This document shows, one piece after another, positions 26,892 through 64,000 of a stretch of 64,000 nucleotides of DNA (position 1 is the stretch's first letter; each line of letters starts with the position of its first letter). The position numbers and the translations under genes were made by a program. Location of the stretch: the NCBI GenBank assembly GCA_965198175.1, contig OZ240245.1, forward strand, positions 160,001-224,000, written 5' to 3'. The notes under the pieces are model-generated. The model ran no database searches, had not been told where the DNA came from, and worked only from the letters and a program-made list of their open reading frames with translations. This DNA is from Candidatus Poribacteria bacterium. GTDB taxonomy: Bacteria; Poribacteria; WGA-4E; PCPOR2b.

Positions 26892-26921
26892 CTATCGCAC
26901 TCGCTATTCGATCGCTTGATC
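26892..26921 (-). mobile_element. 30-nt structured mini-element, full copy, abutting a REP arm
   Basis: Reverse complement GATCAAGCGATCGAATAGCGAGTGCGATAG. Confidence 0.8.
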
Positions 26922-38160: not shown

Positions 38161-38190
38161 GATCAACTGAGCGAATAGCGAAGGCGATAG
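38161..38190 (+). mobile_element. 30-nt structured mini-element, full copy
   Basis: GATCAACTGAGCGAATAGCGAAGGCGATAG, directly after TGTAG. Confidence 0.8.
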
Positions 38191-47513: not shown

Positions 47514-49439
47514 TCATGGGTAGAGACTATAGACCTTCATGCCGAATGCGACGCCGATGAGGCTCCAGATCCCCCAAGCAAGGAATTGCCCCAGAATGAA
47601 GCCCAGAAAAAGGGGCAACGCGCGACGATAGGCGCCAATCCCACCCCCTTTAAAGATAAGCCGCTTGAGTAGCCAACCGCAAAAGATAGAGAACCACATA
47701 CCACTAATGCACCATCCATACGAAACGGCGAAGCCTACAGGGTAGAACGACCACCAGAGAAATCGACGCTTTAGGAACGCAAGCAAGATTGTGAAGAAGA
47801 AACCAAATCCAAATCCACGAATCTGGCGAATGCTAGGGTCGCGCGGATGGGAAATCCAACTCGAAAGAAAATGGAAAGGGGCTATAGCGTCCAATCCCTG
47901 TCTGTAGTGATACTGATAGTAAAGGACGATATGCGCGCCAATAGCTATCAACGATCCAACGATGCCGGCAAAAATCATCGCCGCGACGAGGCGATTATCC
48001 CGTATCCCCAGCGCTGAACCAATCTTGAATCCTTCGAGTTGGTGGGGCATCGGATGAGAGCGGTAGCCATAGGCGAGCCATTGAAGGAGTGTCGTCAGGG
48101 AAAGGCTTTTTGCACCGACAACACGTGTCCCTGCAAACATGATGATAAGGCGATCTGGAAGCGCGTCATGAAGCTCATGCGTGGGTGGACCTAACTCTGC
48201 ACGCATACGCGCCATAGCGATGCAGAGGAGGAAATGAATGATAAAGTAGAGTGACGCCACCCAGTATGGGAGACCTGCAGCGTGCCAGAAAGCAAGCATG
48301 ATGAGAAACCCGCCGATTCCCCCATAGATTGCGAAACGGTACAGGGGCTCCTGCTCTGCCGCTTTCTGGCTTCTGCTGAAGAGTCCACGGAGCATTTGCC
48401 AGATATGATGTCGACCGGTCCAGAGTGCAATAAATCCAATTGCAAGCCATGCGCCGGCACGCTGTTCTCCATGCCACCGGTCGAGAGGACGCCAACCCAT
48501 TGCCGCGAAAACAACATGCTCTGCTTTCCAGAAAAGAAAGAAGAACCAGAGCGAGAAGGAAAGTCCGAGCGGCATCAAGTAACCCACTCCCACCGCGAAA
48601 AGATAAATCTTCATCGGAAACCACGAGATAGCATTCCACGGTTTCTCAGTCATGTACTGAGCAATTTCAATGTCCTTCAGCGGGAGAGCGGGAATCCAAG
48701 GATAGAGATAGTTTAACCCTGCAAACACCTCGATAGTCAGCGCCACAGCGAAACCAATCCACGTGAGCCTGCTAGAGAAGACCCCCGCCGTATCACCAAT
48801 TATCTCAATGGGAAGTTGCGCAATCGGGTAGTTCAGTCTCTCATGTTCTATCCACTGCCTTCGGAGCACGATGTTGATACAGAGCGTTACAAAGAGGAAG
48901 ATACTAGTGAAGATAGACCACGCAACGAAAGGCTTAAGCCACGACAGAACAATGAACCGTTGCCAGAAGGGCTCTGTGCCGGGTTCATAATACCCCTGAA
49001 GCACGGTGCGATCAGAGATAGTCAGCCAGTTAGGGAGATAGGCGTGGAAAAGTTTCGCCCAGTCGTTCTCAGGTGTCGCAAGCCAAAACCCGTTGATGGT
49101 CGTTGGGACGAGTTGGCGGGCAATGTCACGTCCCGAAAGCGCCGTGGCAATGGAAATCATGACGTAGAGCGTTGCAAGTTCGGGTCGTGTCAGTGCAAAG
49201 CGGGGGGCGAAGCGTTTTATTCCGTGATTGATCAGCGCAAGCATAAACAAGGTGAACAGCACCGTTGGAAAGAATGAGAAGACCGTGACTTCCCCAACAA
49301 CGCGGTGCTCTGCCGCGACAATCCAGTAAACATTGAAAAAAATTAGAGGCGCCCCAAATCCGAGCACCCGGGCAATAAAGCGGAATGTGCTAGTTGTGTC
49401 GGTAATAGCCGGATTCTTTGTTCGAGACGCTGAAATCAT
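47514..49439 (-). CDS. Polytopic membrane protein (DUF6785/DUF6784, putative peptide transporter)
   Basis: LRRQWIEHERLNYPIAQLP, RMRAELG, HPMPHQLEGFK, PLFLGFILG. Confidence 0.8.
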   Translation of the reverse strand: MISASRTKNPAITDTTSTFRFIARVLGFGAPLIFFNVYWIVAAEHRVVGEVTVFSFFPTVLFTLFMLALINHGIKRFAPRFALTRPELATLYVMISIATALSGRDIARQLVPTTINGFWLATPENDWAKLFHAYLPNWLTISDRTVLQGYYEPGTEPFWQRFIVLSWLKPFVAWSIFTSIFLFVTLCINIVLRRQWIEHERLNYPIAQLPIEIIGDTAGVFSSRLTWIGFAVALTIEVFAGLNYLYPWIPALPLKDIEIAQYMTEKPWNAISWFPMKIYLFAVGVGYLMPLGLSFSLWFFFLFWKAEHVVFAAMGWRPLDRWHGEQRAGAWLAIGFIALWTGRHHIWQMLRGLFSRSQKAAEQEPLYRFAIYGGIGGFLIMLAFWHAAGLPYWVASLYFIIHFLLCIAMARMRAELGPPTHELHDALPDRLIIMFAGTRVVGAKSLSLTTLLQWLAYGYRSHPMPHQLEGFKIGSALGIRDNRLVAAMIFAGIVGSLIAIGAHIVLYYQYHYRQGLDAIAPFHFLSSWISHPRDPSIRQIRGFGFGFFFTILLAFLKRRFLWWSFYPVGFAVSYGWCISGMWFSIFCGWLLKRLIFKGGGIGAYRRALPLFLGFILGQFLAWGIWSLIGVAFGMKVYSLYP

Positions 49440-49515
49440 CCTAAACCGTTTCGTCAGGTAATGAAGAGGTTAGATTCAGGGGTCTGAAATACGTTCACAC
49501 TAAGTCTAAGTTATC

Positions 49516-49722
49516 CTAGCCGCCTTGAACTGCATGAACAATCTCAACCTCGCTTCCGGGATGGACGACCGTCTCCTGCCACTGTTTTCTGGAAATTAAC
49601 TCCTGATCGATGGCAACGGCAACTCCTGGTTGGACTGGATCGATTTGCAAATCTAAAAGTAATTGATAAAGCGATAACTCCTGCTCAACTGTCTTGACTT
49701 CGCCATTCACTCGTATATCCAT
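49516..49722 (-). CDS. thiS: Sulfur carrier protein ThiS
   Basis: IRVNGE...VEIVHAVQGG C-terminus. Confidence 0.96.
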   Translation of the reverse strand: MDIRVNGEVKTVEQELSLYQLLLDLQIDPVQPGVAVAIDQELISRKQWQETVVHPGSEVEIVHAVQGG

Positions 49723-49742
49723 TGATTCTTTCCGTTGGACAC

Positions 49743-49833
49743 GTTCAACCGACCGAATAGGGAGGGATCAAGCGAGCGAGTAGCGAGCGCGATAGTCTTC
49801 GCTGGCGATCCGCCCCTATGAGCTCAGTTGATC
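49743..49833 (+). mobile_element. Nested cluster of 30-nt mini-elements
   Basis: Partial copy 49743-49765 interrupted by a full copy 49766-49795; degenerate inverted copy ending at 49833. Confidence 0.8.
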
Positions 49834-49838
49834 CTTTT

Positions 49839-50990
49839 TCATGAAAACCTTGACAACTGAAACGGTGCGATGACTTCTGAGGTTTGACCGGTCAAGACGA
49901 GTGAAGCAATTTCACGAGCGGTCACCGGCGCCAGAAGAATGCCGTTCCGATAGTGTCCAGTCGCCATAACCAGATTCTCAACAGCCGTTTCACCGAGGAT
50001 GGGGGCGTTGTCACGGCTTCCCGGACGCAATCCGGTCCACGTCTCTACAATGGGGAGATCGTAAACGCCAGGAACGGCTTCCCAAGCGCCCCGAAGCAGC
50101 TCGAATAAACCTCCAGCGGTCAGTCGGGTATCGAATCCCATTTCTTCGTTTGTCGCTCCAATTACCAGACGCCCATCATTCTTGGGGGCAAGATAGACAT
50201 CCGTCAGATACTTCGCACGAATCGTGCGAATCACCTTTTCGAGAATAACTCCTGCTTCCATCTGTAGCGCGAGTATTTGCCCCTTGACCGGGCGTAGAGG
50301 CGGTTTCACAATTCCCGGCAACCCTTCAATCTCGTTAGACCAGCATCCGGCAGCGAGCACAATGACATCGCCATTGTCCAGAACCCCTTCGACCCAAACC
50401 CCACGCGCTTTTACATCTCGAATCTCAATTTTCTCGACGGGCATGTTTTCATACAGACTTCCTCCCGCTCTCTGATACGCTACAATCAAGGCTTCAACCA
50501 TCAAGCGGTTGTCAACCTGATGGTCACTTGGGCTGAAAATCGCGGCGGTGACTTTCGGGGAAAGCAACGGTTCCATCTCCCTCGCTTCAGAACCAGTGAG
50601 CCATTTGCACGGGAGATTCAAGAATTGTTGGGATTCATACAGATGCTTGAGTTCACGGGCGTCATCCTGGTCTAAGCCGACAATTAACGTCCCCTCTGTC
50701 CGGTAGCCGACGGACATCCCACTATCCGCCTCCAATGCCTCAACCCATTCCGGATACAGCTGAAGACTGAGATTGCCCAATTGAAGGAGCGCTTTCTCTT
50801 CAAAGTGAACCTCGGCGAGCGGGGCTAACATCCCCGCGGCTGACCACGATGCCGAACGTCCTGCGTAATTTCGCTCATAAATTGATACGCCACAACCTGC
50901 CTTTGCCAGTTGCCATCCGATGCTCAGCCCAATCACGCCACCGCCGACGATAATCACTCGTGGATCTGAATGTGGCTTGTGGGTTTGCAT
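49839..50990 (-). CDS. thiO: Glycine oxidase ThiO
   Basis: GGGVIG, AAGMLAP, PVKGQ, GLRPG, GHYRNGILLAP. Confidence 0.95.
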   Translation of the reverse strand: MQTHKPHSDPRVIIVGGGVIGLSIGWQLAKAGCGVSIYERNYAGRSASWSAAGMLAPLAEVHFEEKALLQLGNLSLQLYPEWVEALEADSGMSVGYRTEGTLIVGLDQDDARELKHLYESQQFLNLPCKWLTGSEAREMEPLLSPKVTAAIFSPSDHQVDNRLMVEALIVAYQRAGGSLYENMPVEKIEIRDVKARGVWVEGVLDNGDVIVLAAGCWSNEIEGLPGIVKPPLRPVKGQILALQMEAGVILEKVIRTIRAKYLTDVYLAPKNDGRLVIGATNEEMGFDTRLTAGGLFELLRGAWEAVPGVYDLPIVETWTGLRPGSRDNAPILGETAVENLVMATGHYRNGILLAPVTAREIASLVLTGQTSEVIAPFQLSRFS

Positions 50991-51149
50991 CCTTTTTCTC
51001 ACTGTGAACGAAACACGAATCGTGAACAGCAAGTCCCAGGCAGTCGTCTAAACTGCTTCTTGAAATCGTGAACTTTGAGTTGCGATTTTCTCACGCCTCA
51101 CATCAATGATGTTTTTTGACGTTTGACCCGCTCCACTCGGTTCAATTGA

Positions 51150-53075
<1,926 letters not shown>

Positions 53076-53220
53076 CTATTCCTCCTGTCAGTAGGGAAAC
53101 AATACCGATCAAAAAAAAACCGTCTTCCAGCATAAGGAAAACGGTGTCCTAAACAGAAAGGATCCCATCGCATAAGAACGAGGATTTCCGATCTGAATCA
53201 ATATTTGTGGGTTAACTCGT

Positions 53221-53312
53221 GTTTTCCTACGCTGGTATTACCCAGGTCAGGTTCAAAGGGTTTGTTCTCAGCTCTCGCCGACCCTTATAATTTAGAGAGA
53301 GCACCCCTAACA
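53221..53312 (-). ncRNA. TPP riboswitch
   Basis: Reverse complement GGGGTGC...GCTGAGA...ACCCTTTGAACCTGACCTGGGTAATACCAGCGTAGGAA, upstream of thiC. Confidence 0.95.
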
Positions 53313-53328
53313 ACCTATACTGCATGCT

Positions 53329-53357
53329 ATAGTACATCATTTGCAGAAAAAAGTCAA
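53329..53357 (-). promoter_or_regulatory. Predicted sigma70 promoter of the thi operon (TTGACT-N17-TACTAT)
   Basis: Immediately upstream of the riboswitch. Confidence 0.65.
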
Positions 53358-53407
53358 GGAAAAGATAATTCAATCGCCTGCCGCCGTAGAGACCGAAGAA
53401 AAGCACA

Positions 53408-54176
53408 TCACGGCTTCATCGGCAAGATGGTGTTTCGAAGCCCGCCCATCAACGCTTTGATTTCGCGCTCACCTAGCGCAACGTCCAATACGGCGAACTC
53501 GTCAATAATACCCCCGAATGTACCGCCCGTCAAGGATTTGTGCCGACCTCCGATGTGCAAATCCGCAGTACGGGGAAAATAGTGACACACACTCTGCCTC
53601 GACGCTACTTCTGACCCATTTCTGTAGATTTTCATGGAATTTTGGCTCGCGCTGCATACAAAGCCCCAGTGTTCCCACCTGCCCAGAGTATCCAAGGGAC
53701 GTTCCAACCTAATCTGTTTTCCACCAAATTGCCAGTGAATAGCGTTAGGTATGGGCTTATTCCACGGGAAGTGCACGGTGAAGCGATCATCTATGTCGGG
53801 TCTCCAATGACCACTTCGGTTAATTGGAACCAAACTGAAAAGGTCGTGATTTTTGACCTCTTCAAGTTTGACCCATGCCACGACGGTCACTTCGCTACTG
53901 GGAACAGACTTCCCAAAATCAGGGACGACGACTGCATCGCCATCTCCACCAAATTGTAGCGCTGTACCAAACTTGCCGGGGACTCGCTTGGGGTGCTCCA
54001 TCAGGTTCCCATCGTGTCCATTGCCAGACGAATCAGTGGCGATATGGTCGTGGTCATCGTCAAAAAGCCACATGGCGACAATCTTCTCTGGACTGATTAT
54101 AGGGGACTGCTTTGCGCATCCGATTGTAAAGATATAGAAACGCAATATATAAAACACACACTCTATTTAGCTTCAT
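53408..54176 (-). pseudogene. LamG-domain lipoprotein with an apparent frameshift in its signal peptide
   Basis: DSSGNGHDG, GKFGTAL, WEHW, GIIDEFAV; the ATG with an AAGGAG SD (54176) is out of frame with the TIGC lipobox. Confidence 0.65.
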
Positions 54177-54343
54177 TTTGGACATCTCCTTTCGTATGGT
54201 GCCGCATGGTCAATGGCGCGGTCCATAACATAGAATTTAAGATTACGCACATCAAACGCTGTGCACTTGGATTTTGCAACTTTAAACACCTTCGAATCCG
54301 TGGCACCGTAGCAATCCCACAGCAAGTTTTTGTAGGTTGGGCA

Positions 54344-54435
54344 GATCAACTGCGAATAGATCAAGCGAACGAATAGTGAGTGCGATAGTTTTTCCGAAAC
54401 CCAACGATCAAGCGAGCGAATAGCGAGTGCGATAG
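54344..54435 (+). mobile_element. Three mini-element copies within and beside a GTAGGTTGGG...GAAACCCAAC REP
   Basis: Partial 54344-54358; full 54359-54388; full 54406-54435. Confidence 0.82.
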
Positions 54436-54840
54436 AGTCCTCATTGCTGCAAAAATAACGACGATTCCGAACCTCCTATCACTCGCCCGCCTTAAGTATG
54501 ATTAACAAAAACATCTCTTTACTTGACGCTTGATAAATCAACTTATCTACTATCAACGCCTCGGAAGGCACATCCGAGACACACGAGGCTTTGTAACAGT
54601 CGATTGACGAAGTTGAATTGTCGCGCGGGCTGGCAGGGCTGCTGGGTCGTATTATGGATAATAAAAAGATCGGGTTTGCTAACTAGCAATAGGGTTGGCT
54701 TCGTTGCCGAATATGATGCGTTCGCTGGGTTCGTCGAATTGCAAGGCGACTCAATACCGATACTCATAATGGCAAGCGTTGCTCACAATTAAGGACGAAC
54801 AAGATAAGTGGGGGTTAGGAGGTTAAGATTCGTTGAGGCA

Positions 54841-55062
54841 TCAGGCGCGTTTGAAATCTGTCCAATTTATACCTAATTGACGAATACATGCGCGAATTGT
54901 TCCAATTGGCATATCGTTAGTTCCGTGATCAGGAATAACAGTCGCGCTTTCAGTAATGGGGTTGAACCATTTTCGATGAGAGCCTCGTGTTCTGTGTTTC
55001 GTTTCTTGACAACCGAGTTTTTTAAGTTTACGCGACATTTCTCGATATGTCATAGTGCTCAC
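54841..55062 (-). CDS. hicA: HicA family toxin
   Basis: LKKLG...RGSHRKW...VIPDHG...GTIRACIRQLG. Confidence 0.9.
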   Translation of the reverse strand: MSTMTYREMSRKLKKLGCQETKHRTRGSHRKWFNPITESATVIPDHGTNDMPIGTIRACIRQLGINWTDFKRA

Positions 55063-55378
55063 GATTTAGAGTTGCTTGAAAGACGTAAGGCACGGGCGAG
55101 TCATCAGCCCCTTGTAATTTTGGGGTCATTGTCTGAAACGGGTGAAGTGCTGGTTCTTGTTTTGACTCATGAATAATGTTGTCAGGCAATGTACGTCCCA
55201 AATCTTCATATAGTTCAAATGTTGCGATGAATGCGTCTTTGACATTATTTAGCGCCTCATCTACCGAATGCCCGTCCGTTATCAATTCAGGCAATTCCTC
55301 ACATGTTACGGTATAACCGCCTTCCGGCTCCGGGTTCAACCTCACAGTAATGCAATATACTGTGGTTGGGACGTTCAC
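55028..55378 (-). CDS. hicB: HicB family antitoxin
   Basis: AAGGAG SD before GTG 55378; EGGYTVTCEELPELITDG.SVDEAL.NVKDA. Confidence 0.88.
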   Translation of the reverse strand: MNVPTTVYCITVRLNPEPEGGYTVTCEELPELITDGHSVDEALNNVKDAFIATFELYEDLGRTLPDNIIHESKQEPALHPFQTMTPKLQGADDSPVPYVFQATLNREHYDISRNVA

Positions 55379-55633
55379 TGTCAAATCTCCTTTTTGGGTA
55401 GGTTTCGGTATATAAATATGATCTGTTACAATGCCAAAGGCGTACAAATTTGCGTCGCCTTTCGGTGGGGATTATACCATTGGGATCGAGACATTGTCAA
55501 GAGATACGCACGATGCAATATCAAGATTTTGTAGGTTGGGTTAAGCGTGTATTTCCAACCCCGTTACTGCACCCGTACCTCGTCCCAATTTCTTTACGAT
55601 GTCCTAAAAAAAATTCGCAGAGCGTAACCCAAC

Positions 55634-55663
55634 GATCAACTGAGCGTATAGCGAAGGCGATAG
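55634..55663 (+). mobile_element. 30-nt mini-element, full copy, at the end of a REP-like element (55531-55633)
   Basis: GATCAACTGAGCGTATAGCGAAGGCGATAG, directly after GTAACCCAAC. Confidence 0.8.
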
Positions 55664-56166
55664 TTTTCTCCGAAATTTCCAAATTCGTCCCGCCCGGATT
55701 TTTTGGGAATTTCGATGGGAATTGAACGGTGGACAGTCAGATTGGGATCTGTTAATCTAAATGTATCGCATTCGTTGAGGAGTGTCACGGTCGTCAACCC
55801 CGGCGACCGCCCTCAACCAAATACATGATTAGATAAAATAATTAACTCAATGTTCGTTTTCGGATTTCTGAGGAGTGTTCCCGATGACGCTTAGGAAACC
55901 GAACATAAGGAATAAAAAGTGTTCCAAATCCTTCGACTGCTGAGGTCACTACGGTACGCAAAGAACGCTTGGTGCACTGAGGTTCCGTGCTGCCTCTCGC
56001 TTGCACATAGGGGCGGTACGGCATTAACCATGTTGAATCCTATTACGAGGGGCACTTAAAGAGGAATCTCAATATGTCCGAACACGAGGCAAAACAACTT
56101 GAAAAAAAGAACTGCCCTACCTGTGTGTATGTTTACTGATGGAATCACAATAGAAAAAGGCACAAA

Positions 56167-56583
56167 ATGATGAAGAATGCAAAAGCACTGGCGATGCTCC
56201 CATACGTTTTGATTGCAGGTTGTGCAGCCTCTACGTCGTCACCTACTTTGAATGAGGTGATGGACTCATGGATGGGCCATCATGTTTCAGAAGTTATACG
56301 GGCATGGGGACCGGCTGATCGGCTCGCTGAAGATGGTGCAGGTGGGAAGATTTACATCTGGATAACGCCAGGAATTTCACCTTCACCACCACGACGGGTG
56401 TGGGTTACAGAATGGAACCCTGTGCTAGGGCAGTGGGAAGGGCGATGGAAAGAAGAGTCCACCGGAATATCAGGTGCTATTCGAAAAAGCCTTGAGCGTG
56501 AGCTCGCTCGTTCACGCCGAAAGGAATTTTTTGTGCGTCCAGACGGTATAATTTATTGGTATCGCACTGGATACGAAGAATGA
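56167..56583 (+). CDS. Lipoprotein, hypothetical
   Basis: IAGC lipobox; SWMG...VIRAWGP motif. Confidence 0.7.
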   Translation: MMKNAKALAMLPYVLIAGCAASTSSPTLNEVMDSWMGHHVSEVIRAWGPADRLAEDGAGGKIYIWITPGISPSPPRRVWVTEWNPVLGQWEGRWKEESTGISGAIRKSLERELARSRRKEFFVRPDGIIYWYRTGYEE

Positions 56584-56918
56584 CACCTCACCATGCGAGC
56601 ATAGGATATTTGCTGATTCGACAAAACACAAAAATCGCGGTGCGTCGCAATTTGCCGAATATTTAGGCAAGGTGAGGAATTACTCCAGCCACAGCATAAA
56701 ACTACAGGGGACACAGGTTGGAACCAGTTTTGCGGGTCGGTTACGCTCTCTGCCACGACGAAAAGCGGACCGAAGGTTTGTACAGTAATGTAGGTGGATC
56801 TGCACCTCGGTGCCAGTGTCGATTAGCGCCGACCGCATTCAACAGTCGTATCGGCTGAGATGTTCTATTCGAAATAAGGAGGTATACTATGAGCGAAGTT
56901 ATGCAAATTGAAGTTTTT

Positions 56919-57011
56919 GTAGGTTGGGTTGAGCCAACGGCGAAACCCAACGCTTTATGATTCACATGTGGATTGGATGTTGGATTTCACTATCGCACAA
57001 CCCAACCTTAC
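56919..57011. repeat. Inverted pair of REP-like palindromes (uninterrupted reference copy)
   Basis: GTAGGTTGGGTTGAGC...GCGAAACCCAAC and GTTGGATTTCAC...CAACCCAACCTTAC. Confidence 0.75.
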
Positions 57012-57180
57012 TACTCCCATGTCTGCTGAATGATGGTTCAATGTCTCATCTGTGCGCACGCTAGCACAATTACCACCGCAGACCGTAAGAAACTATATAC
57101 ATGTTAAGTATGCAGGGATAAACCTACCCTACAGCAACGCTTTCAGATTCCATACCCTCCAATCCATCGGTTCTATCGTT

Positions 57181-58134
57181 TCAGTCTGCGTTTTCCCCTT
57201 CACTGTCCGTCGGCGCAGGCAGGGCGTTCGCTCCATTGCCATCCGTCTTCTGCTCAGGCGCTTTAAGTGCAAGTGCCAACTTCTGCAGAACCCCAACAAG
57301 CTCCGCACTATCACCGCCAATAGCGTTCTGGTCGGGTGCTCTCAGCGCAAGCGTCAGCCGTTCCAATACCGCAACAAGCTGAGGAGGAGACAGGTTCTCA
57401 GCAACCGGTACTTCCACCGCCGATAGCTCTCGCAGGTTCTTAAAAGTTTGCGTCAACGAATTCGTGAGCAGTTGATATCCTTTCACGTCAAGCGATTTCT
57501 TCTCCAATATTCGGTTGGTTCGCTCCGCATGTTTGGCTAAAAGCGCCATCTGCTCCTCTTTAGAGGTTAACGGAATGTCGCTCACTGTCTGCTTATACGC
57601 CTCCCGAGCTTCGCGCCACAGCGCGCCGTACTTCTTTTCAGGCCACCGCGCCGAACCCGGCTTCAGATACGCTACCCGCGGAATCAGAGCATCACGTAGT
57701 CCCTGAGTCCCCATCGCGTCCTTATGCGCCAATCGATTCATAGTCTCGTCTGACCACATCAACTCTGTGACTGCATCAGATGTGGAAATGCCTTGCGCAT
57801 GTGCACGGACAAAATACTCGCGGTGCGTATCTGTAATGAAAGACGAAATGTACCAACCCAACTCTTCCCTTACTATATCTCTTATTTTATCCAGATAATA
57901 CGAATCCAACTCGCTAATATCGCCAAAATCGTCGTCTTCGTCCTCACCATATATATCCACAATTATCTCCAGCGCATAACGCTGAATTCGTTCAACAACT
58001 GCATTAGCAAGCTCATGACCGCTGCCCGTATTAAACAACTCTTTTACATCTGACCTGAGCTCGGAAAGTCCTTTCTTCTCGGCATCCCCAAGAAGTGCCG
58101 CCTTAAGTGTAGTCTTCGGCTTTTCTGTCGCCAT
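57181..58134 (-). CDS. Hypothetical helical protein with a DUF2280-like segment
   Basis: GAGG SD; KKYGALWREAREAY...SDIPLTSK pattern. Confidence 0.6.
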   Translation of the reverse strand: MATEKPKTTLKAALLGDAEKKGLSELRSDVKELFNTGSGHELANAVVERIQRYALEIIVDIYGEDEDDDFGDISELDSYYLDKIRDIVREELGWYISSFITDTHREYFVRAHAQGISTSDAVTELMWSDETMNRLAHKDAMGTQGLRDALIPRVAYLKPGSARWPEKKYGALWREAREAYKQTVSDIPLTSKEEQMALLAKHAERTNRILEKKSLDVKGYQLLTNSLTQTFKNLRELSAVEVPVAENLSPPQLVAVLERLTLALRAPDQNAIGGDSAELVGVLQKLALALKAPEQKTDGNGANALPAPTDSEGENAD

Positions 58135-58387
58135 TATTGCACCTCGTCTTTTAGGCAAGTTTGATTTTTTCATAGTAAGATTCCGCGTCCCGTCCGATGA
58201 AAACCACGCTAAGATCCGACCACGACTGGATTGTCGTCTGTTTTCTATTTAAATCACAACTGCGCGCAACTATGAAAACTATGAATATTTTGAACAACTG
58301 TGAAGTTGCAATATCCCTATTGTTAAAATTTGCCATTGCCTGACCTGTTTTGCAACCCTTTTTGCAATTGCTTTTAGGTTAGGTTGA

Positions 58388-58493
58388 GATCAACCGACCG
58401 AATAGTGAGGGATCAACTGAGCGGATAGATCAAGTGACCGAATAGGAAACGCGATAGAGATGTTAGGCGATAGTCTTCTGGTGACTGCGGTAG
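58388..58493 (+). mobile_element. Triple-nested mini-element cluster
   Basis: Starts at 58388, 58411 and 58428; ends at 58457 (GCGATAG), 58473 (AGGCGATAG) and 58493 (GCGGTAG). Confidence 0.82.
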
Positions 58494-58615
58494 TTTTTTC
58501 CGACAGCACCGCTTCACCTACCGTGAATTTCCCCTTTTTTTATAGACTGTAAAAACTGTAATTTTTTAGTCCCAACTTTGTCATTCACCACATCAAGTTT
58601 GGAGGAAGAAAAACA

Positions 58616-58644
58616 TTGACAATCCAATCGACTCTAGTTAAAGT
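58616..58644 (+). promoter_or_regulatory. Predicted sigma70 promoter of guaA (TTGACA-N17-TAAAGT)
   Basis: Consensus -35 with 17-nt spacer. Confidence 0.55.
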
Positions 58645-58691
58645 ATATCTAGTGTTGTTTCGATAATACCCTTGCCTAAGGATGAGGAGCA

Positions 58692-60230
58692 ATGAACCGC
58701 GACACCATTGTCGTTTTAGATTTTGGCTCACAGTATACGCAGTTAATTGCGAGGCGCATTCGAGAACAGAACGTGTATTGTGAAATTCATCCATACCACA
58801 TTTCCGTTGATCGTTTAGTTTCGATGCGACCTAAGGGAATTGTTTTGTCCGGTGGGCCCTCAAGCGTTTACGCGCCAGATGCTCCTCTTCCCGATACCAG
58901 AATTTTTGCGCTTGGTGTTCCGATTCTAGGCATCTGTTACGGCATGCAGGTCGTCGCACATTTGTTAAATGGAGGCAAGGTACACCCAGCCGTTGAACGT
59001 GAATACGGTTCGGCAGAGCTGACTGTTGATTTGCCGATTCCGCTGTTTGCCAATCTGCGAGGTCAGTTGAAGGTGTGGATGAGCCATGGCGATCGAATCG
59101 AGGTTCCGCCGCAAGGATTCCATCGAATCGCGCACACGAGCAACTCACCAATTGCGGCGATGGGCGATATAGATCGGGATATCTATGGTTTGCAGTTCCA
59201 TCCAGAGGTTGTTCATACTATAGATGACAACCAGATCCTTTCGAACTTTGTCCTTGAGATTTGTGGGTGCAGCAAGGGATGGACGATGAAATCCTTTGTC
59301 GTCGAGGCAACAGAGAAAATCCGAAGGCAGATTGAAGGAAATCGCGTTTTATGCGCTGTGAGCGGCGGTGTTGATTCAACCGTCCTTGCAGTGTTGCTTC
59401 AGCGTGCCATCGGCGAGGCGCTTGTTTGCGTTTTCGTGAACAATGGCTTGTTGCGAAATAATGAAGCGGAAAGCGTGCTTGCAGATTTTCGGAAGCTTGG
59501 AATTGAGGTGCATTATATTGATGCGACAGATCGATTCCTGAGTTGCCTTGCGAACGTTGATAGTCCCGAAGAGAAGCGCAAGCGAATCGGGTATCAGTTT
59601 ATCGAAGTTTTTAGGGACGAGTTGGGAACGCTAGGGCAGATCGACTTCCTTGCGCAGGGCACCCTCTACCCTGATGTCATCGAAAGTGTGTCCGTCAAAG
59701 GACCTTCTGCGACAATCAAGACCCATCATAATGTTGGTGGATTGCCCAAAGATTTACCCTTCAAACTCATCGAACCTTTCCGAGAGTTATTCAAAGACGA
59801 AGTGCGAGCAGTAGGACTTGAGTTAGACATCCCGAAATCAATCCTTGGACGACACCCATTTCCGGGCCCCGGTCTAGCTGTCCGGGTGATTGGCACTGTT
59901 ACTCAGAAGCGGCTAGATATTCTGCGTGAAGCAGATGAAATCTTCATTTCGGAGATTAAGAAAGCTGGGTTGTATGATGAGATTTGGCAAGCGTTGACGG
60001 TGCTTCTGCCAGTCAAGAGCGTCGGTGTGATGGGTGATGAGCGAACCTACGAAAACGTGCTAGCACTCCGCGCTGTTACGAGCACCGATGCCATGACCGC
60101 GGATTGGGCGCGAATTCCTGACGAAGTATTGGCTGTAATCTCCAATCGCATCATCAACGAGGTGCAGGGCATTAACCGCGTTGTTTACGATATTAGCTCA
60201 AAACCACCGAGCACAATTGAGTGGGAGTGA
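58692..60230 (+). CDS. guaA: GMP synthase (glutamine-hydrolysing)
   Basis: [37 protein letters not shown]. Confidence 0.99.
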
Positions 60231-60337
60231 TCAACCGATCAAGCGACTGGATAAAGAGCGATCAACCGAGTGAATAACGAGGGCGATAGTCTTCACCGGC
60301 ATTAAAACTATTGCGTTCCCTATTCGCTCACTTGAAC
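60229..60337. mobile_element. Cluster of four mini-element copies
   Basis: Partials 60229-60236 and 60237-60259; full 60260-60289; inverted full 60308-60337. Confidence 0.82.
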
Positions 60338-60398
60338 TGTTTGCCTTGTTTTGCAACCCATTCTTTCTGGAATGCCTGTAACGGCGAATGAAATCTTA

Positions 60399-62555
60399 AT
60401 GACAGATCTTCTTGAGTCTTTGAATCCAGTTCAACGTAAAGCAGTGCAACATACCGAAGGTCCCTTGCTGCTCTTCTCAGGCGCAGGCAGCGGCAAAACC
60501 CGTGTGATTACCCACCGAATAGCCTACCTCATCCGCCAACACAATATTTCGCCGTTTAATATCCTTGCGGTAACCTTCACCAACAAAGCTGCCGCGGAGA
60601 TGAAAGGGCGTCTTGAGAAACTAATTGGTGCGGACAGTCAACTCCTGTGGGCATCGACTTTCCATTCGACCTGTGCACGGATTCTGCGCAAGGACATTGA
60701 GCGGCTCGGCTATTCCCGCTCTTTCACGATTTACGATACCCTAGATCAGCTTACGCTTATTAAGGAAATTCTCAAGCAACTCCAACTGCGGGAGAGCGAT
60801 GTTCATCCAAAGGCTGTCCTCAGTACCATCAGTAAAGCCAAGAACGAACTCGCTACCCCTGAAATGTACGCGAAGACAGTCAGCGATTTCTTTGAGGAGC
60901 GAGTCGAACAGATTTATCGGATGTACCAGGACCGCCTTCGGGAGAATAACGCCGTCGATTTTGACGATCTCATCATGCTGACGGTCGAGTTGTTTGAATC
61001 TCGGTCTGATGTCCTGGGGTTCTATCAGAGCAAATTTCGATATATCCTTATTGATGAGTATCAGGACACAAACCACAGCCAGTATCGACTGATACATGCG
61101 TTGGCGAAAAAGCATCGTAACATCTGCGCCGTAGGCGACGACGATCAGTCAATATACTCGTGGAGAGGCGCCGACATCAACAACATCCTCGATTTTGAGA
61201 GAGACTATCCGAACACGACTGTCCTCCGCTTAGAGCAAAACTATCGCTCCACCCAAAATATCCTCGAAGCAGCTTATGAAGTTGTACGGAACAATCGGAG
61301 GCGAACGGAGAAAAAACTGTGGACTCAGAACAAGATGGGAGAGGGCATCCGCTGCTTTGAAGCTCTGGACGAGACCGAGGAGGCTGACGTAGTTTTGCGC
61401 GAGATTGAGCGTTGGCGAGAGAAAGGGGTGAAATACGGAGAATGTGTAATTTTCTATCGAATCAATGCGCAGTCCCGCACGTTTGAGGACGCTCTCAGAA
61501 AAGCCAATATCCCGTATCAGATTGTGGGAAGCGTCCGATTCTATGAGCGGATGGAAATTAAAAACATAATGGCATACCTGCGAGTTATTGCCAACCCGGC
61601 AGACGCAATCAGTCTTAAGCGCATCATCAATGTCCCGCGCAGGGGGATTGGTGAAACAACGCTACAACGACTGGAGATTTTCGCTCGCGCTGCGGACATC
61701 TCCCTGTTCAAAGCTATCAAGCGAGTCGGCGAAGTCGCCACGCTTCGTGAAGCGGAGCGGGACAAAGTCCGCATCTTCGCTCAACTCATCAACTCTTTTG
61801 ACGTAGACGATGCACCAGCACAGACAGTAGAGCAACTTCTCGATCGATCTGGGTACCTTAAATCTCTGATGCAAGAAGGCACAATTGAGGCGCAAAGTCG
61901 AGTCGAGAACGTCCATGAGTTAATCACTGCCGCCGTTGAATATGAAGAGCGTGAGACCGAACCGACGCTAGCCGGTTTTCTGGAGATGATTACGCTAGTC
62001 GCTGACATCGACACTATGGATGACAAAAGCGACGTAGTCACACTCATGACCCTGCATAGCGCAAAAGGGCTGGAATTTCCCATTGTTTTCATGGTCGGGA
62101 TGGAACAAGGGTTATTGCCCCATAAGCGTTCATTTTCCAGCGAAGCCGAACTGGAGGAGGAACGGCGGCTCTGTTACGTTGGGCTTACACGAGCGAAAGA
62201 GCAGGTTTACCTGATTTACGCTCGCGAGCGGCGGCAGTACGGCTACACTGAACATTCGATACCCTCGTGTTTCATTGAAGAGATTCCCCACGAATTGCTA
62301 AATCGTGAAGAAGTCTATAAACCTTCCCACCGTCCGGTCGTATCATCCTATGACCCGGATCAGCCAAACGATGATGTAGACTATTCATTCGATTACGAAG
62401 TTGGAGAGGTTGTGTACCACGCAAAGTTCGGCAGAGGAAAAATTGCCGCCATGAGTGGATATGGGGCTGATATGCGTGTCACTATACGGTTCGCACGTGG
62501 AATTGAGAAAACCCTGATGGCGGGTTACGCGAGGCTGCAAAGAGCAGAGCCATAA
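60399..62555 (+). CDS. pcrA: ATP-dependent DNA helicase PcrA/UvrD
   Basis: GAGSGKT, DEYQDTN, VGDDDQSIY, LEQNYRS, HSAKGLEF, EERRLCYVG. Confidence 0.96.
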   Translation: MTDLLESLNPVQRKAVQHTEGPLLLFSGAGSGKTRVITHRIAYLIRQHNISPFNILAVTFTNKAAAEMKGRLEKLIGADSQLLWASTFHSTCARILRKDIERLGYSRSFTIYDTLDQLTLIKEILKQLQLRESDVHPKAVLSTISKAKNELATPEMYAKTVSDFFEERVEQIYRMYQDRLRENNAVDFDDLIMLTVELFESRSDVLGFYQSKFRYILIDEYQDTNHSQYRLIHALAKKHRNICAVGDDDQSIYSWRGADINNILDFERDYPNTTVLRLEQNYRSTQNILEAAYEVVRNNRRRTEKKLWTQNKMGEGIRCFEALDETEEADVVLREIERWREKGVKYGECVIFYRINAQSRTFEDALRKANIPYQIVGSVRFYERMEIKNIMAYLRVIANPADAISLKRIINVPRRGIGETTLQRLEIFARAADISLFKAIKRVGEVATLREAERDKVRIFAQLINSFDVDDAPAQTVEQLLDRSGYLKSLMQEGTIEAQSRVENVHELITAAVEYEERETEPTLAGFLEMITLVADIDTMDDKSDVVTLMTLHSAKGLEFPIVFMVGMEQGLLPHKRSFSSEAELEEERRLCYVGLTRAKEQVYLIYARERRQYGYTEHSIPSCFIEEIPHELLNREEVYKPSHRPVVSSYDPDQPNDDVDYSFDYEVGEVVYHAKFGRGKIAAMSGYGADMRVTIRFARGIEKTLMAGYARLQRAEP

Positions 62556-62669
62556 TGATAGGAAGTTTATTTAATCCAGAATCGGATAGCGAATCTACGG
62601 CTGAAACTGATGCCCATCGCAATTCTTGGTAGCTTGTAGTTTAGAAAAGCGAGAGGTAGGAGAACCAAG

Positions 62670-62960
62670 ATGGCAACCATCACGACAAACGAAGTGAAAC
62701 ACGTTGCGACCCTTGCACGACTTGAATTTAACGAAGAAGATATACAGCAGTTCGCCCATCAACTCGCCCGGATTCTAGACTATATTGGAAAGTTGAACGA
62801 ATTGGATACGATCGATGTGCCGCCAACTTCGCATGTCCTTCCCATTCGCAACGTCGTCAAAGCAGATGTTGCGAAGTCCTCCTATCCACGAGATGATGTT
62901 TTGGAAGGTGCACCGAGCGCACAGGAGGGATATTTTGAGGTACCGAAGGTGATTGAGTAA
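62670..62960 (+). CDS. gatC: Asp/Glu-tRNA amidotransferase subunit C
   Basis: VKHVATLARL...YFEVPKVIE. Confidence 0.96.
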   Translation: MATITTNEVKHVATLARLEFNEEDIQQFAHQLARILDYIGKLNELDTIDVPPTSHVLPIRNVVKADVAKSSYPRDDVLEGAPSAQEGYFEVPKVIE

Positions 62961-63063
62961 ACTGTGGAAAAGCGGAAAAGCAGTAGATAGTGGTGAACCA
63001 AACCCACTCCTACGCTTCACTAGCTACTGACCACTAACCACTGGGTCTTGGAGTACACGTTTC

Positions 63064-64000
63064 ATGTCACTACACGAACTGACTGCCCACGAACTGCACG
63101 AAAAATTGAAAGCACGCGAAATCACTTCTGCTGATCTCACGCAATCAGTGTATGACCGCATTGACGCCGTTGAAGAACAGATACAAGGGTATATTACATT
63201 AACAAAGGAGATAGGTTTCGAGCAAGCCGCTGCTGCTGACGCAGGCTTTGAACGCGGCGATGATATGCAGCCGCTCGCAGGAATTCCTATTGCTATCAAG
63301 GATGTGATCTGTACCAAAGACGTGTTGACAACCTGTGGCTCGAAGATATTGCACAGTTTCGTTTCGCCCTACGACGCCACCGTTATGACCAAAATCCGTC
63401 ATCAGGGGTTTGTGATGATCGGCAAGACAAACATGGACGAATTTGCGATGGGGTCATCAACAGAGAATTCGGCGTATAAGATTACGCGCAATCCCTGGAA
63501 TCTGGAAACCATCCCCGGTGGCTCAAGCGGCGGTTCCGCAGCCGTTGTCGCCGCAGATGCTGCAATCTGCTCTCTCGGTTCGGACACCGGCGGTTCGATT
63601 CGACAACCAGCTGCGCTTTGCGGTGTCGTTGGAATGAAGCCAACTTACGGACGTGTGTCGCGGTATGGGCTAGTTGCCTTTGCATCGTCCTTAGATCAGA
63701 TTGGGCCATTCTCCAAGGATGTGACCGATAACGCTTTGATGCTCAACGCCATCTGTGGACATGATCCGATGGATTCTACCTCCGCGAATCTTCCCGACAC
63801 GGACTTCACCCACAGCTTAATCAACGACATCAAAGGGATCAAGATCGGCATCCCGAAGGAATATTTCTTAGAAGGGATAGATGCTGAAGTCGAAGCGTGC
63901 GTGCGGGACGCGATTGAGGTGCTTCGAGGGTGCGGCGCGATTGTCGAAGAGATTTCCTTACCCCATACCGAATATGCGATTGCAACATATTACATCATCG
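63064..64000 (+). CDS. gatA: Asp/Glu-tRNA amidotransferase subunit A, 3' end runs off the window
   Basis: Hand translation: MSLHELTAH...PLAGIPIAIKD...GKTNMDEFAMGSSTENS...PGGSSGGSAA...LGSDTGGSIRQPA. Confidence 0.97.
   Translation, partial: MSLHELTAHELHEKLKAREITSADLTQSVYDRIDAVEEQIQGYITLTKEIGFEQAAAADAGFERGDDMQPLAGIPIAIKDVICTKDVLTTCGSKILHSFVSPYDATVMTKIRHQGFVMIGKTNMDEFAMGSSTENSAYKITRNPWNLETIPGGSSGGSAAVVAADAAICSLGSDTGGSIRQPAALCGVVGMKPTYGRVSRYGLVAFASSLDQIGPFSKDVTDNALMLNAICGHDPMDSTSANLPDTDFTHSLINDIKGIKIGIPKEYFLEGIDAEVEACVRDAIEVLRGCGAIVEEISLPHTEYAIATYYII

Follow-up and report, generated by a model that had tools for sequence, protein, structure and literature searches.

Organization of the nest at 58388-58493

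The window analysed here is a stretch of 64,000 nucleotides (nt) on contig OZ240245.1 of a Candidatus Poribacteria bacterium, the genome of which (G000) was a single contig of 4.92 Mb with 48.9% G+C. At 58388-58493 it carries a nest of a short hairpin repeat, here called E30, with the consensus GATCAA NN GA NY GRATAR N GA NN GCGATAG followed by a T-rich tail. All parts of the nest lie on the forward strand. An outer E30 head of 23 nt (58388-58410, G000 218388; positions 1-23, CC/CC subtype) was followed by a middle head of 17 nt (58411-58427, G000 218411; positions 1-17, CT/GC subtype) and then by an innermost full copy of 30 nt (58428-58457, GT/CC subtype). Behind this copy, at 58458-58473, stood AGATGTT and AGGCGATAG, the latter (58465-58473) being the 3′ remainder, positions 22-30, that matches the 17-nt head. 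The tail TCTTCTGGTGACT (58474-58486), which begins with the T[CT]TT extension of the family, came behind this composite, and the stretch 58487-58503 comprised the outer end GCGGTAG (positions 24-30, 58487-58493) and TTTTTTCCGA, the usual run into the 3′ arm of REP1, a repetitive extragenic palindromic (REP) hairpin. The three starts followed by three ends of the original prediction were thus all present, with heads of 23 and 17 nt around a full 30-mer, though the GCGGTAG end may stem from a lost outermost CT/GC host and not from the 23-nt head. The nest would be held in a frame of REP1, as the preceding 18 nt (58370-58387, forward strand; GCTTTTAGGTTAGGTTGA, compare TTTTGTAGGTTGGGTTGA) resemble a degenerate REP1 5′ arm; the usual REP1/E30 junction reads ...GGGTTGA/GATCAA.

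Unitigs of sequencing run X1 tiled 58100-58800 with 0 differences and reads of run X3 covered both flanks of the nest. The cluster was thereby supported by reads in part only, for no single X1 piece spans the nest and X1 may be the source sample itself. In run X7, from a related strain, an extra 12-nt head (GATCAACTGAGC) was found ahead of 58388. The RNA run X17 gave only short contigs matching parts of E30, which come from copies that cannot be told apart and are silent on transcription of this locus.

The segment 58411-58478 recurred with 94% identity over 64-68 nt at G000 2158595, 2623097 and 3590432, and more weakly at three further loci, while the string ...ATAG AGATCTT AGGCGATAG was carried at about 23 loci genome-wide. 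Judged by these recurrences, the middle and inner layers are one dispersed 68-nt composite and were not assembled in place. The nest is therefore probably to be read as a pre-formed composite (17-nt head, full copy, AGATGTT and AGGCGATAG) that sits inside a further host within a decayed REP1 frame, a reading that we hold jointly with the general explanation given below.

Copy number, tail and distribution of E30

Searching with the 30-mer at up to three mismatches retrieved 258 full copies from G000. They were balanced between the strands (130 forward, 128 reverse) and intermixed along the genome, and a replication-strand bias was rejected on these counts. Within the window, the 18-nt core pattern of E30 gave 14 matches against 0.82 expected, and none of 100 shuffles reached 14. 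According to crude gene calls, on which all counts relative to genes rest, 224 of the 258 copies fell outside open reading frames (ORFs); between co-directional genes the sense orientation prevailed by 97 to 56, and by 54 to 26 when isolated copies were taken.

Directly behind the core, T was found at +1 in 180 of 232 copies, at +3 in 176 and at +4 in 211. Since most copies keep T[CT]TT at these four positions, the E30 unit comes to about 35 nt, namely the 30-nt core and the T[CT]TT extension. T/C-rich tails behind the inner copies had been described beforehand and taken as a mechanistic footprint of insertion. The tails were there, but a T-rich tail stood behind nearly all copies, nested or solo, and because T[CT]TT belongs to every copy and had no link to subtype, it cannot be a footprint of nesting. 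The idea that the tail is a donor-specific flank was likewise dropped, as tail class and subtype were not associated (chi-square p=0.18).

The relatives were surveyed in 41 genomes at up to two mismatches. E30 was present in all four genomes of the same genus (225-243 copies each), in all four genomes of genus g11 from another family (831-1427 copies each) and, with 21, 3, 1 and 1 copies, in four more, making 12 of 41; it was not found in the other 29. Across a species-genome collection at least 80 exact matches were obtained, and among the matches listed all were Candidatus Poribacteria records. A literature search found no published account of such repeats in Poribacteria.

The E30 hairpin

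Four position pairs of E30 (7-23, 8-22, 11-19 and 12-18) co-varied through C-G, G-C, A-T and G-T. They were standard in 155-173 of 174 distinct sequences, whereas the maxima over 2000 shuffles were 104-165. Positions 9-10 formed an invariant tandem G.A/A.G with positions 20-21, and positions 2-4 paired with 26-28. Among the wobble cells G.T exceeded A.C (84 vs 27), which indicates that pairing is kept on the forward strand of the repeat. When this strand was folded as RNA, exactly the covariation model was obtained, a three-helix hairpin of -6.1 and -6.3 kcal/mol with an ensemble frequency of 0.83-0.84; RNA folding of the reverse strand yielded no such structure.

These data would also fit a selected RNA module, retained and multiplied since its forward-strand hairpin acts on transcripts (in stability, termination or the binding of protein); selection for more hairpins would then have the stacks as a by-product. 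The wobble excess and the RNA fold are as such a module would require, and so are the sense bias in tandem gene pairs and the position of most copies outside the crude ORFs. Conserved regulatory sites, however, would be expected at shared places, and E30 loci were hardly common even between species of one genus (see below); the partial heads cannot form the hairpin, and the base rule at the breakpoints described in the next section is left unexplained. An Rfam scan of window positions 48000-64000 gave no family matching E30 or REP1, its single hit being a thiamine pyrophosphate (TPP) riboswitch. A function in RNA is compatible with mobility too, and as a replacement for mobility we consider it very improbable.

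Breakpoints within nested copies

Heads were collected by walking upstream from each full copy, and a head was accepted if it matched the E30 prefix and ended exactly at the next start; lengths of 6 to 29 nt were tested. Among the 258 full copies this yielded 89 validated heads in 72 nests, of which 58 were one deep, 11 two deep and 3 three deep. Only seven lengths occurred, namely 23 (42 heads), 17 (28), 18 (8), 12 (5), 8 (4), 10 (1) and 24 nt (1), and no head of any remaining length between 6 and 29 nt was found. The unfiltered count had the same peaks above a chance background at short lengths. Genome G038, of another family, contained 150 head-plus-start matches, and for the 100 of them that were listed the lengths, derived from the match coordinates, were 23 (22), 19 (18), 18 (19), 17 (12), 12 (15), 10 (8) and other (6). 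The breakpoints are thus strongly non-random, as had been set as a check for the original prediction, and they recur in the genome of another family. Of the individual breaks named there, those at 49765, 58410 and 60259 (23 nt), 58427 (17 nt) and 60236 (8 nt) stood, whereas the one at 54358 turned out to follow a 15-nt head.

Partial repeats could also come from slippage during replication or from local tandem duplication inside a single copy. Heads and following copies are indeed direct repeats arranged head to tail, and loss of a head by slippage does happen, as seen at 340968 and in run X7. However, none of the 89 heads was identical to the next copy at the variable positions, the 23-nt heads differing on average at 5.2 of 10, and a process of this kind is also at odds with only seven head lengths. 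Within-copy slippage is therefore excluded as the source of the heads, as had been predicted; as an account of the nests it is scarcely credible, and it remains a route of loss. Nor are the breaks copies of a few founders, since the number of different host/insert subtype pairs was 30 for the 42 breaks at nt 23 and 17 for the 28 at nt 17.

The host consensus after the used breaks was G (G9, G13, G18, G20 and G24). All 18-nt heads carried C11 (9 of 9 in the unfiltered listing of G000, and 19 of 19 among the G038 matches listed), although C11 occurred in only 66 of 232 copies overall; the pairing partner at the variable position 19 is accordingly G. The claim that breaks fall just before a G therefore held for heads of 23, 17, 12, 8 and 18 nt, while the single 24-nt and the single 10-nt heads are exceptions or undecided. 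As the next copy itself begins with G, the break may equally fall just behind the G of the host.

Gains, losses and remodelling in sister genomes

Three genomes of the same genus were compared with G000, of which G001 is about 92% identical and collinear and G002 and G003 are about 85% identical. Locus sharing was scored for 22 G000 clusters in a syntenic stretch of 313 kb. In G001 12 clusters were present, 6 absent and 4 not anchored; the corresponding figures were 3, 11 and 8 in G002 and 1, 12 and 9 in G003. So few shared loci in genomes that each keep about 230 copies mean that turnover is fast.

Three gains were found in G000 at places that were empty in G001-G003. At G000 365612, a site without any REP, E30 and TCTTAACC stood where G001 had GAGAT, and the bases behind this gain, GACA, were common to the usual continuation of that tail (TCTTAACCGACAG). 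At 319270 an inverted doublet of 80 nt was gained as a unit in place of GCCCCGC in G001. At 308933 an entire nest together with its partner replaced about 80 nt. In the two cases that could be read, 365612 and 319270, the replaced bases began with G, a few target bases were lost and nothing was duplicated. The reverse was seen at G000 303589, where E30 is present in G001-G003 and G000 retains only GGCATTCTGT, probably a remnant of its 3′-end.

Existing nests were also remodelled by inversion, by deletion and by dispersal of whole composites. At 340968 the G001 copy combined the G000 head (positions 1-8) with the inner copy (9-30) into a hybrid that has lost its stem pairing, and the apparent extra ends on the opposite arm of the inverted pair in G001 represent an inversion; at 226661 it was G000 that carried a deletion hybrid. 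At 220229 (window 60229) G000 has an 8-nt outer head, a 23-nt head and a full copy; in G001 the outer head, from the same host, measures 18 nt and comes with a different full copy and an orphan end on the other arm, no E30 being present in G002 or G003. An outer head common to both genomes around differing inner content points to successive events in a lasting host.

Association of E30 with REP hairpins and RAYT genes

The commonest 12-mer of the genome, TGTAGGTTGGGT (161 copies), is part of REP1, a GTAG-tagged hairpin of the form GTAGGTTGGGT[AT]GAGC...GCGAAACCCAAC(CTAC). Two forms of it were met, a short hairpin and one of about 110 nt, the latter with a variable middle of 85 nt that ends in AGCGAAACCCAACGCTTTT. 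At up to one mismatch 364 REP1 5′ arms were counted, for example at window 54332-54342 and at L014 1313-1345. Within 40 nt after an arm, E30 was found 81 times in the same orientation and once in the opposite one; the distance was exactly +3 or +5 nt for 65 of the 81 and +22 or +23 nt for 10. In unoccupied twins of seven REP1 contexts the next base was G in 296 of 462 cases, compared with 24% G in the genome. E30 also stood behind GTAGGCGGG of a second REP, behind GTAGGGTGC of a third REP in g11 genomes and behind GTAGGA of a fourth REP in G035.

An intact gene for a REP-associated tyrosine transposase (RAYT), here RAYT1, was identified at G000:C1:1436691-1437230 (L014 1357-1899, reverse strand). 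It encodes 180 amino acids, reached 195 bits with NF047646 against a cut-off of 80, and has REP1 hairpins on both sides and a dense E30 cluster nearby. Orthologues were found in G001 (81% identity) and in G011, G012, G018 and G023 (74%, another genus), and REP1 flanked the orthologue in all three loci scanned (G001, G011 and G023). G011, G012, G018 and G023 carry the orthologue without E30, and RAYT1 was therefore rejected as the E30 enzyme (orthologues at 74% identity or more). A truncated tyrosine-transposase remnant at G000:C1:1596922-1597164 (L013 1489-1740) kept its HUH motif, was interrupted by the 3′ part of an E30 and was about 30% identical to either RAYT type; it is surrounded by the second REP (GTAGGCGGGG...CCCCGCCTAC) bearing E30 inserts. 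Other GTAG REPs bordered the RAYT genes of G032, G038, G003 and G035, and a palindromic repeat without a GTAG tag bordered that of G002; at all of these E30 was an insert or absent. Going by these flanks, RAYTs go with GTAG REPs, and none could be assigned to E30.

The surroundings of RAYT1 nevertheless suit a scheme of passive cargo, in which E30 has no insertion activity of its own, founder composites of REP and E30 were spread by RAYTs, and variety arose through recombination or gene conversion. Besides the intact RAYT1 amid REP1 hairpins and close to dense E30, the two main positions of E30 in REP1 with their single orientation (81 to 1), the dispersal of composites as units and the inversion and deletion directly seen between copies all agree with it. 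The 30 distinct host/insert combinations at one breakpoint do not, nor does the presence of E30 in at least four kinds of REP and in two bacterial families, or the solo gain at 365612, where there is no REP. The REP1 pattern was moreover found in 36 of the 41 relatives and E30 in 12, and REP1-flanked RAYT1 orthologues exist in the E30-free G011 and G023 (in G012 and G018, equally E30-free, the flanks lay outside the scan). Taken together, we regard transport as mere cargo as quite improbable.

Host remainders and the origin of the nests

An orphan end was defined as GCGATAG with up to one mismatch, outside any full copy. Within 40 nt, such ends accompanied 24 of 72 nests and 17 of 186 copies without a head (Fisher p=7e-6). 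At G000 1729435 a 12-nt head was matched by a remainder that pairs with it at three positions. Behind breaks at nt 23 the remainders were usually shortened (ATAG, ACTAG, TATAG, CAG).

The structure, breakpoints, G rule, gains and losses and remodelling that we observed are probably best explained if E30 is a recently mobile, non-coding hairpin repeat of about 35 nt that joins a target G, stacks by repeated hits and is then remodelled. A new copy would be joined exactly by its 5′ end (G/ATCAA) to the target G. Preferred targets would be helix/loop boundaries of hairpin-forming DNA, either in E30 itself, behind positions 8, 10, 12, 17, 18, 19 or 23, or in GTAG-tagged REP hairpins, where E30 would enter the 5′ arm or the 3′ foot and always keep the orientation of the REP. 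The 3′ junction would be ragged, with a variable stretch behind the core, and the target would lose between 0 and about 10 nt, or on occasion more, past the G. Repeated hits would leave stacked 5′ heads, the host remainders being intact, shortened or gone, and later remodelling would proceed by deletion between directly repeated heads, inversion between inverted partners and the copying of composites elsewhere. The serial targeted insertion that had been proposed for the nest is partly upheld, by the fixed breakpoints, the orphan ends and the polarised gains; full symmetry of starts and ends proved to be exceptional, and the inner layers at 58388-58493 look like a composite formed beforehand.

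Junctions that are exact on the 5′ side and ragged on the 3′ side, and the absence of a duplication, a fixed target word and terminal inverted repeats, fit copying from a single-stranded template better than cut-and-paste of the IS200 or DDE type. We thus infer that E30 is copied from a single-stranded template with a fixed end, by copy-choice with synthesis primed on 1-2 nt of homology. The growing strand may stall at a hairpin boundary, re-pair by its terminal G and re-enter the target slightly further on. A more specific version, in which E30 spreads without a dedicated transposase and a short single-stranded RNA or DNA copy with the fixed G/ATCAA end templates the strand stalled at the hairpin boundary, is offered tentatively and is, on our estimate, distinctly unlikely to be right in full.

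Several observations weigh against repeated insertion. Interrupted hosts should predate their inserts, so that an age signal is expected, and none was seen: mismatches per constrained site were 0.033 in heads and 0.039 in enclosed copies, and by pair the head was the more decayed in 18, the less decayed in 25 and equal in 36. Approximately two thirds of the nests have no strong orphan end, and a strong further end within 110 nt was found for 28 of 46 heads of up to 19 nt, compared with 9 of 38 nests with a 23-nt head. The CT/AG complementarity seen in the middle layer did not extend into general evidence: between head positions 7-8 and end positions 22-23 it was found in 16 of 28 cases against 13.5 by shuffling (p about 0.12), a chance level that follows from CT being the most frequent host type and AG the most frequent end. 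Among the anchored comparisons no clean empty site with an intact target was met, every gain replacing a few bases; comparison with empty alleles has thus confirmed real gains relative to the outgroups but only as replacements, and the direction of some events rests on just two or three outgroups. For the recent gains, a search for donors gave matches of 92-95% over 38-55 nt at best and none that was identical. A G is needed yet insufficient, as the common G at positions 22, 23 and 26 was never used, and as single-stranded DNA E30 folded weakly (-0.5 to -1.6 kcal/mol), not better than shuffles. Finally, no gene content tracked E30, RAYT members occurring in genomes with and without it. Reverse transcriptase (PF00078) was not found in G002, G003 and G035, which all have E30, so it is unsupported as the driver at present; the four genomes of the same genus yielded neither MutH/Sau3AI (PF02976) nor DpnII (PF04556), and a GATC-cutting enzyme as maker of the fixed 5′ end was dropped for this reason.

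Some of these points would be natural if nests were concatenated in one step, with a polymerase that copies E30 templates, drops off at favoured places after adding G and restarts on another template at its fixed end, the heads being abortive products and not older hosts that were interrupted. Such a process is favoured by the heads looking no older than the copies inside them, and the many nests without a strong orphan end agree with it. So do the 308933 case, where an entire nest and its partner arose in G000 after the split from G001, and the fact that heads all end before G, which fits a restart on one-base homology. Against it, orphan ends co-occur with heads well beyond chance, the head and remainder at G000 1729435 pair at three positions, the 220229 locus has a common outer head (8 nt in G000, 18 nt in G001) around differing inner content, and the dispersed composites show that layers can predate their present place. 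One-step concatenation is hence a serious alternative, albeit an unlikely one, and insertion by repeated hits is the explanation that we prefer.

Other E30 loci and further features

A second nest was located at 49743-49804 on the forward strand, with a 23-nt head, a full copy, the tail TCTTCGCTG and a cut remainder GCGAT; it is kept in G001 and absent from G002 and G003, and a partial inverted copy lies close by at 49816-49833 (reverse strand). At 54344-54442 (forward), behind a REP1 5′ arm at 54332-54342, a 15-nt head, which corresponds to a 17-nt head minus 2 nt, was followed by a full copy, the spacer TTTTTCCGAAACCCAAC and a second full copy. The third nest, at 60229-60337 (forward), consists of an 8-nt head, a 23-nt head, a full copy, an 18-nt spacer and an inverted partner (60308-60337, reverse), and no orphan ends were found there in G000. 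The first two bases of its outer head complete the stop codon TGA of guaA (60228-60230); guaA ends with TAA in G002 and G003, which have no E30 at this place. Solo copies were found at 55634-55663 (forward), behind ...AACCCAAC of a REP1 3′ arm; at 38161-38190 (forward), identical in G001; and at 26892-26921 (reverse), absent from the orthologous place in G001, G002 and G003.

Further repeats and features were noted along the way. At window 53372 (G001:C1:1696277-1696730) G001 has 452 extra nt with CTTCA on both sides, in which a REP1 arm is found together with an E30 nest of three starts that belongs to the composite family of G000 2608276, 3815178 and 4368405. Near G001:C1 1708700, the orthologue of G000 226661, two E30 copies enclose a short duplicated stretch that comprises the ribosome-binding region and first codons of the gene downstream (ATGATTACCAAGCGCATTATTCCC...). 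The TPP riboswitch detected in the Rfam scan is at window 53207-53318 on the reverse strand (RF00059, 70.8 bits, E 1.6e-12). Additional repeat families are suggested by other abundant 12-mers unrelated to E30 or REP1, among them CAGTCCCGATGG (97 copies), CTCTGGGACGCC (47) and AAAACTCGGTTT (51). A longer end-like sequence, ...CACTGCG GTAGGTTCGGTTTCCTAACCGAACC...GAAACATGTGTAAATATGAATGGAATTGACTATAG, is present in about ten near-identical copies and may represent the terminus of an insertion sequence or of a miniature inverted-repeat transposable element (MITE); the copies lie at G000 845448, 1903310, 1934828, 1993665, 2847138, 3233826, 3388785, 4318898, 4676718 and 4814992. Two palindromic tetramers were strongly depleted genome-wide, with observed/expected ratios of 0.25 for GGCC and 0.52 for GATC, as under restriction pressure.

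Comparison with known systems

Self-nesting mini repeats and inserts that target REPs have already been described, and E30 is no new kind of biology. REPs have been known for some forty years and small dispersed repeats (SDRs) since 2008, and how repeats of 20-40 nt come to move is a question of long standing. In this respect E30 offers junctions that can be counted, with seven preferred breakpoints, a one-base rule, exact 5′ and ragged 3′ junctions. Together with gains and losses between complete genomes of one genus and the like behaviour in two families of this uncultured phylum of sponge symbionts, they make the mechanism testable by comparative or population sequencing. E30 also restructures intergenic regions quickly, to the point of providing the stop codon of guaA.

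Among mobile elements with a transposase gene, IS1397, ISKpn1 and other insertion sequences are said to target the loops of REPs, also called PUs. E30 resembles them as mobile DNA that lands in REP hairpins, and differs in being non-coding and 30-35 nt long, whereas they are full insertion sequences. Members of the IS200/IS605 family insert precisely 3′ of a fixed tetra- or pentanucleotide. They are like E30 in their hairpin-bearing ends, strand-specific insertion and lack of target duplication, but the contexts upstream of E30 vary (..GAGG, ..AATA, ..AACC, ..TAGA, ..GAGC, ..CAAC) with only the junction G in common, and E30 has a ragged 3′ junction with small target losses. MITEs differ as well: the GATCAA and GCGATAG ends of E30 are not inverted repeats of each other, and the gains at 365612 and 319270 replaced 5-7 nt and duplicated nothing.

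With REPs, bacterial interspersed mosaic elements (BIMEs) and the REP doublets known as REPINs, as portrayed in Bertels and Rainey 2011 (PMC3116915) and Di Nocera et al. 2013 (PMC3733652), E30 shares its hundreds of short extragenic hairpin copies, mosaic clusters and the presence of RAYT genes in the genome. Like REPINs it forms inverted doublets, with 33 convergent pairs (66 of 258 copies) and 1 divergent pair, a modal gap of 18-19 nt and the tails facing. According to Di Nocera et al. 2013 (PMC3733652), REPs carry a GTAG or CGTC tetranucleotide at one end and REP families occur inside other palindromes. E30 has no such tag, as it begins with GATCAA... and ends with ...GCGATAG, and no RAYT was directly flanked by E30 in G000, G001, G011, G023, G032, G038, G002, G003 or G035. 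The word 'nested' is absent from both papers (PMC3116915 and PMC3733652).

Also among the closest cases are the SDRs of cyanobacteria. E30, too, is very small and maintains its hairpin through compensatory changes, and copies stand inside their own family, 72 of 258 full copies having heads, up to three deep. SDRs of Nostoc punctiforme and its relatives are reportedly very small dispersed hairpin repeats of 21-27 nt that show compensatory changes and can lie within other repeats; for SDR1 and SDR4, copies inside copies of themselves are reported as well. E30 differs in its length (30-35 nt vs 21-27 nt) and in its host, Candidatus Poribacteria instead of cyanobacteria; its breakpoint catalogue, G rule and ragged 3′ junction were worked out here. 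In the account of SDR5 given in Elhai 2015 (PMC4390886), insertion is described as precisely between the third and fourth base of GCGATCGC, i.e. at G^ATC (GCG^ATCGC), so that SDR5 and E30 share the same junction step, G^ATC. GCGATCGC itself was not enriched in G000 (113 copies). If copying without a transposase were true, E30 would be the smallest self-propagating, hairpin-seeking 'copy-in' element and a hyperparasite of REPs, and the same route might underlie the cyanobacterial SDRs, of which SDR5 likewise joins at G^ATC.

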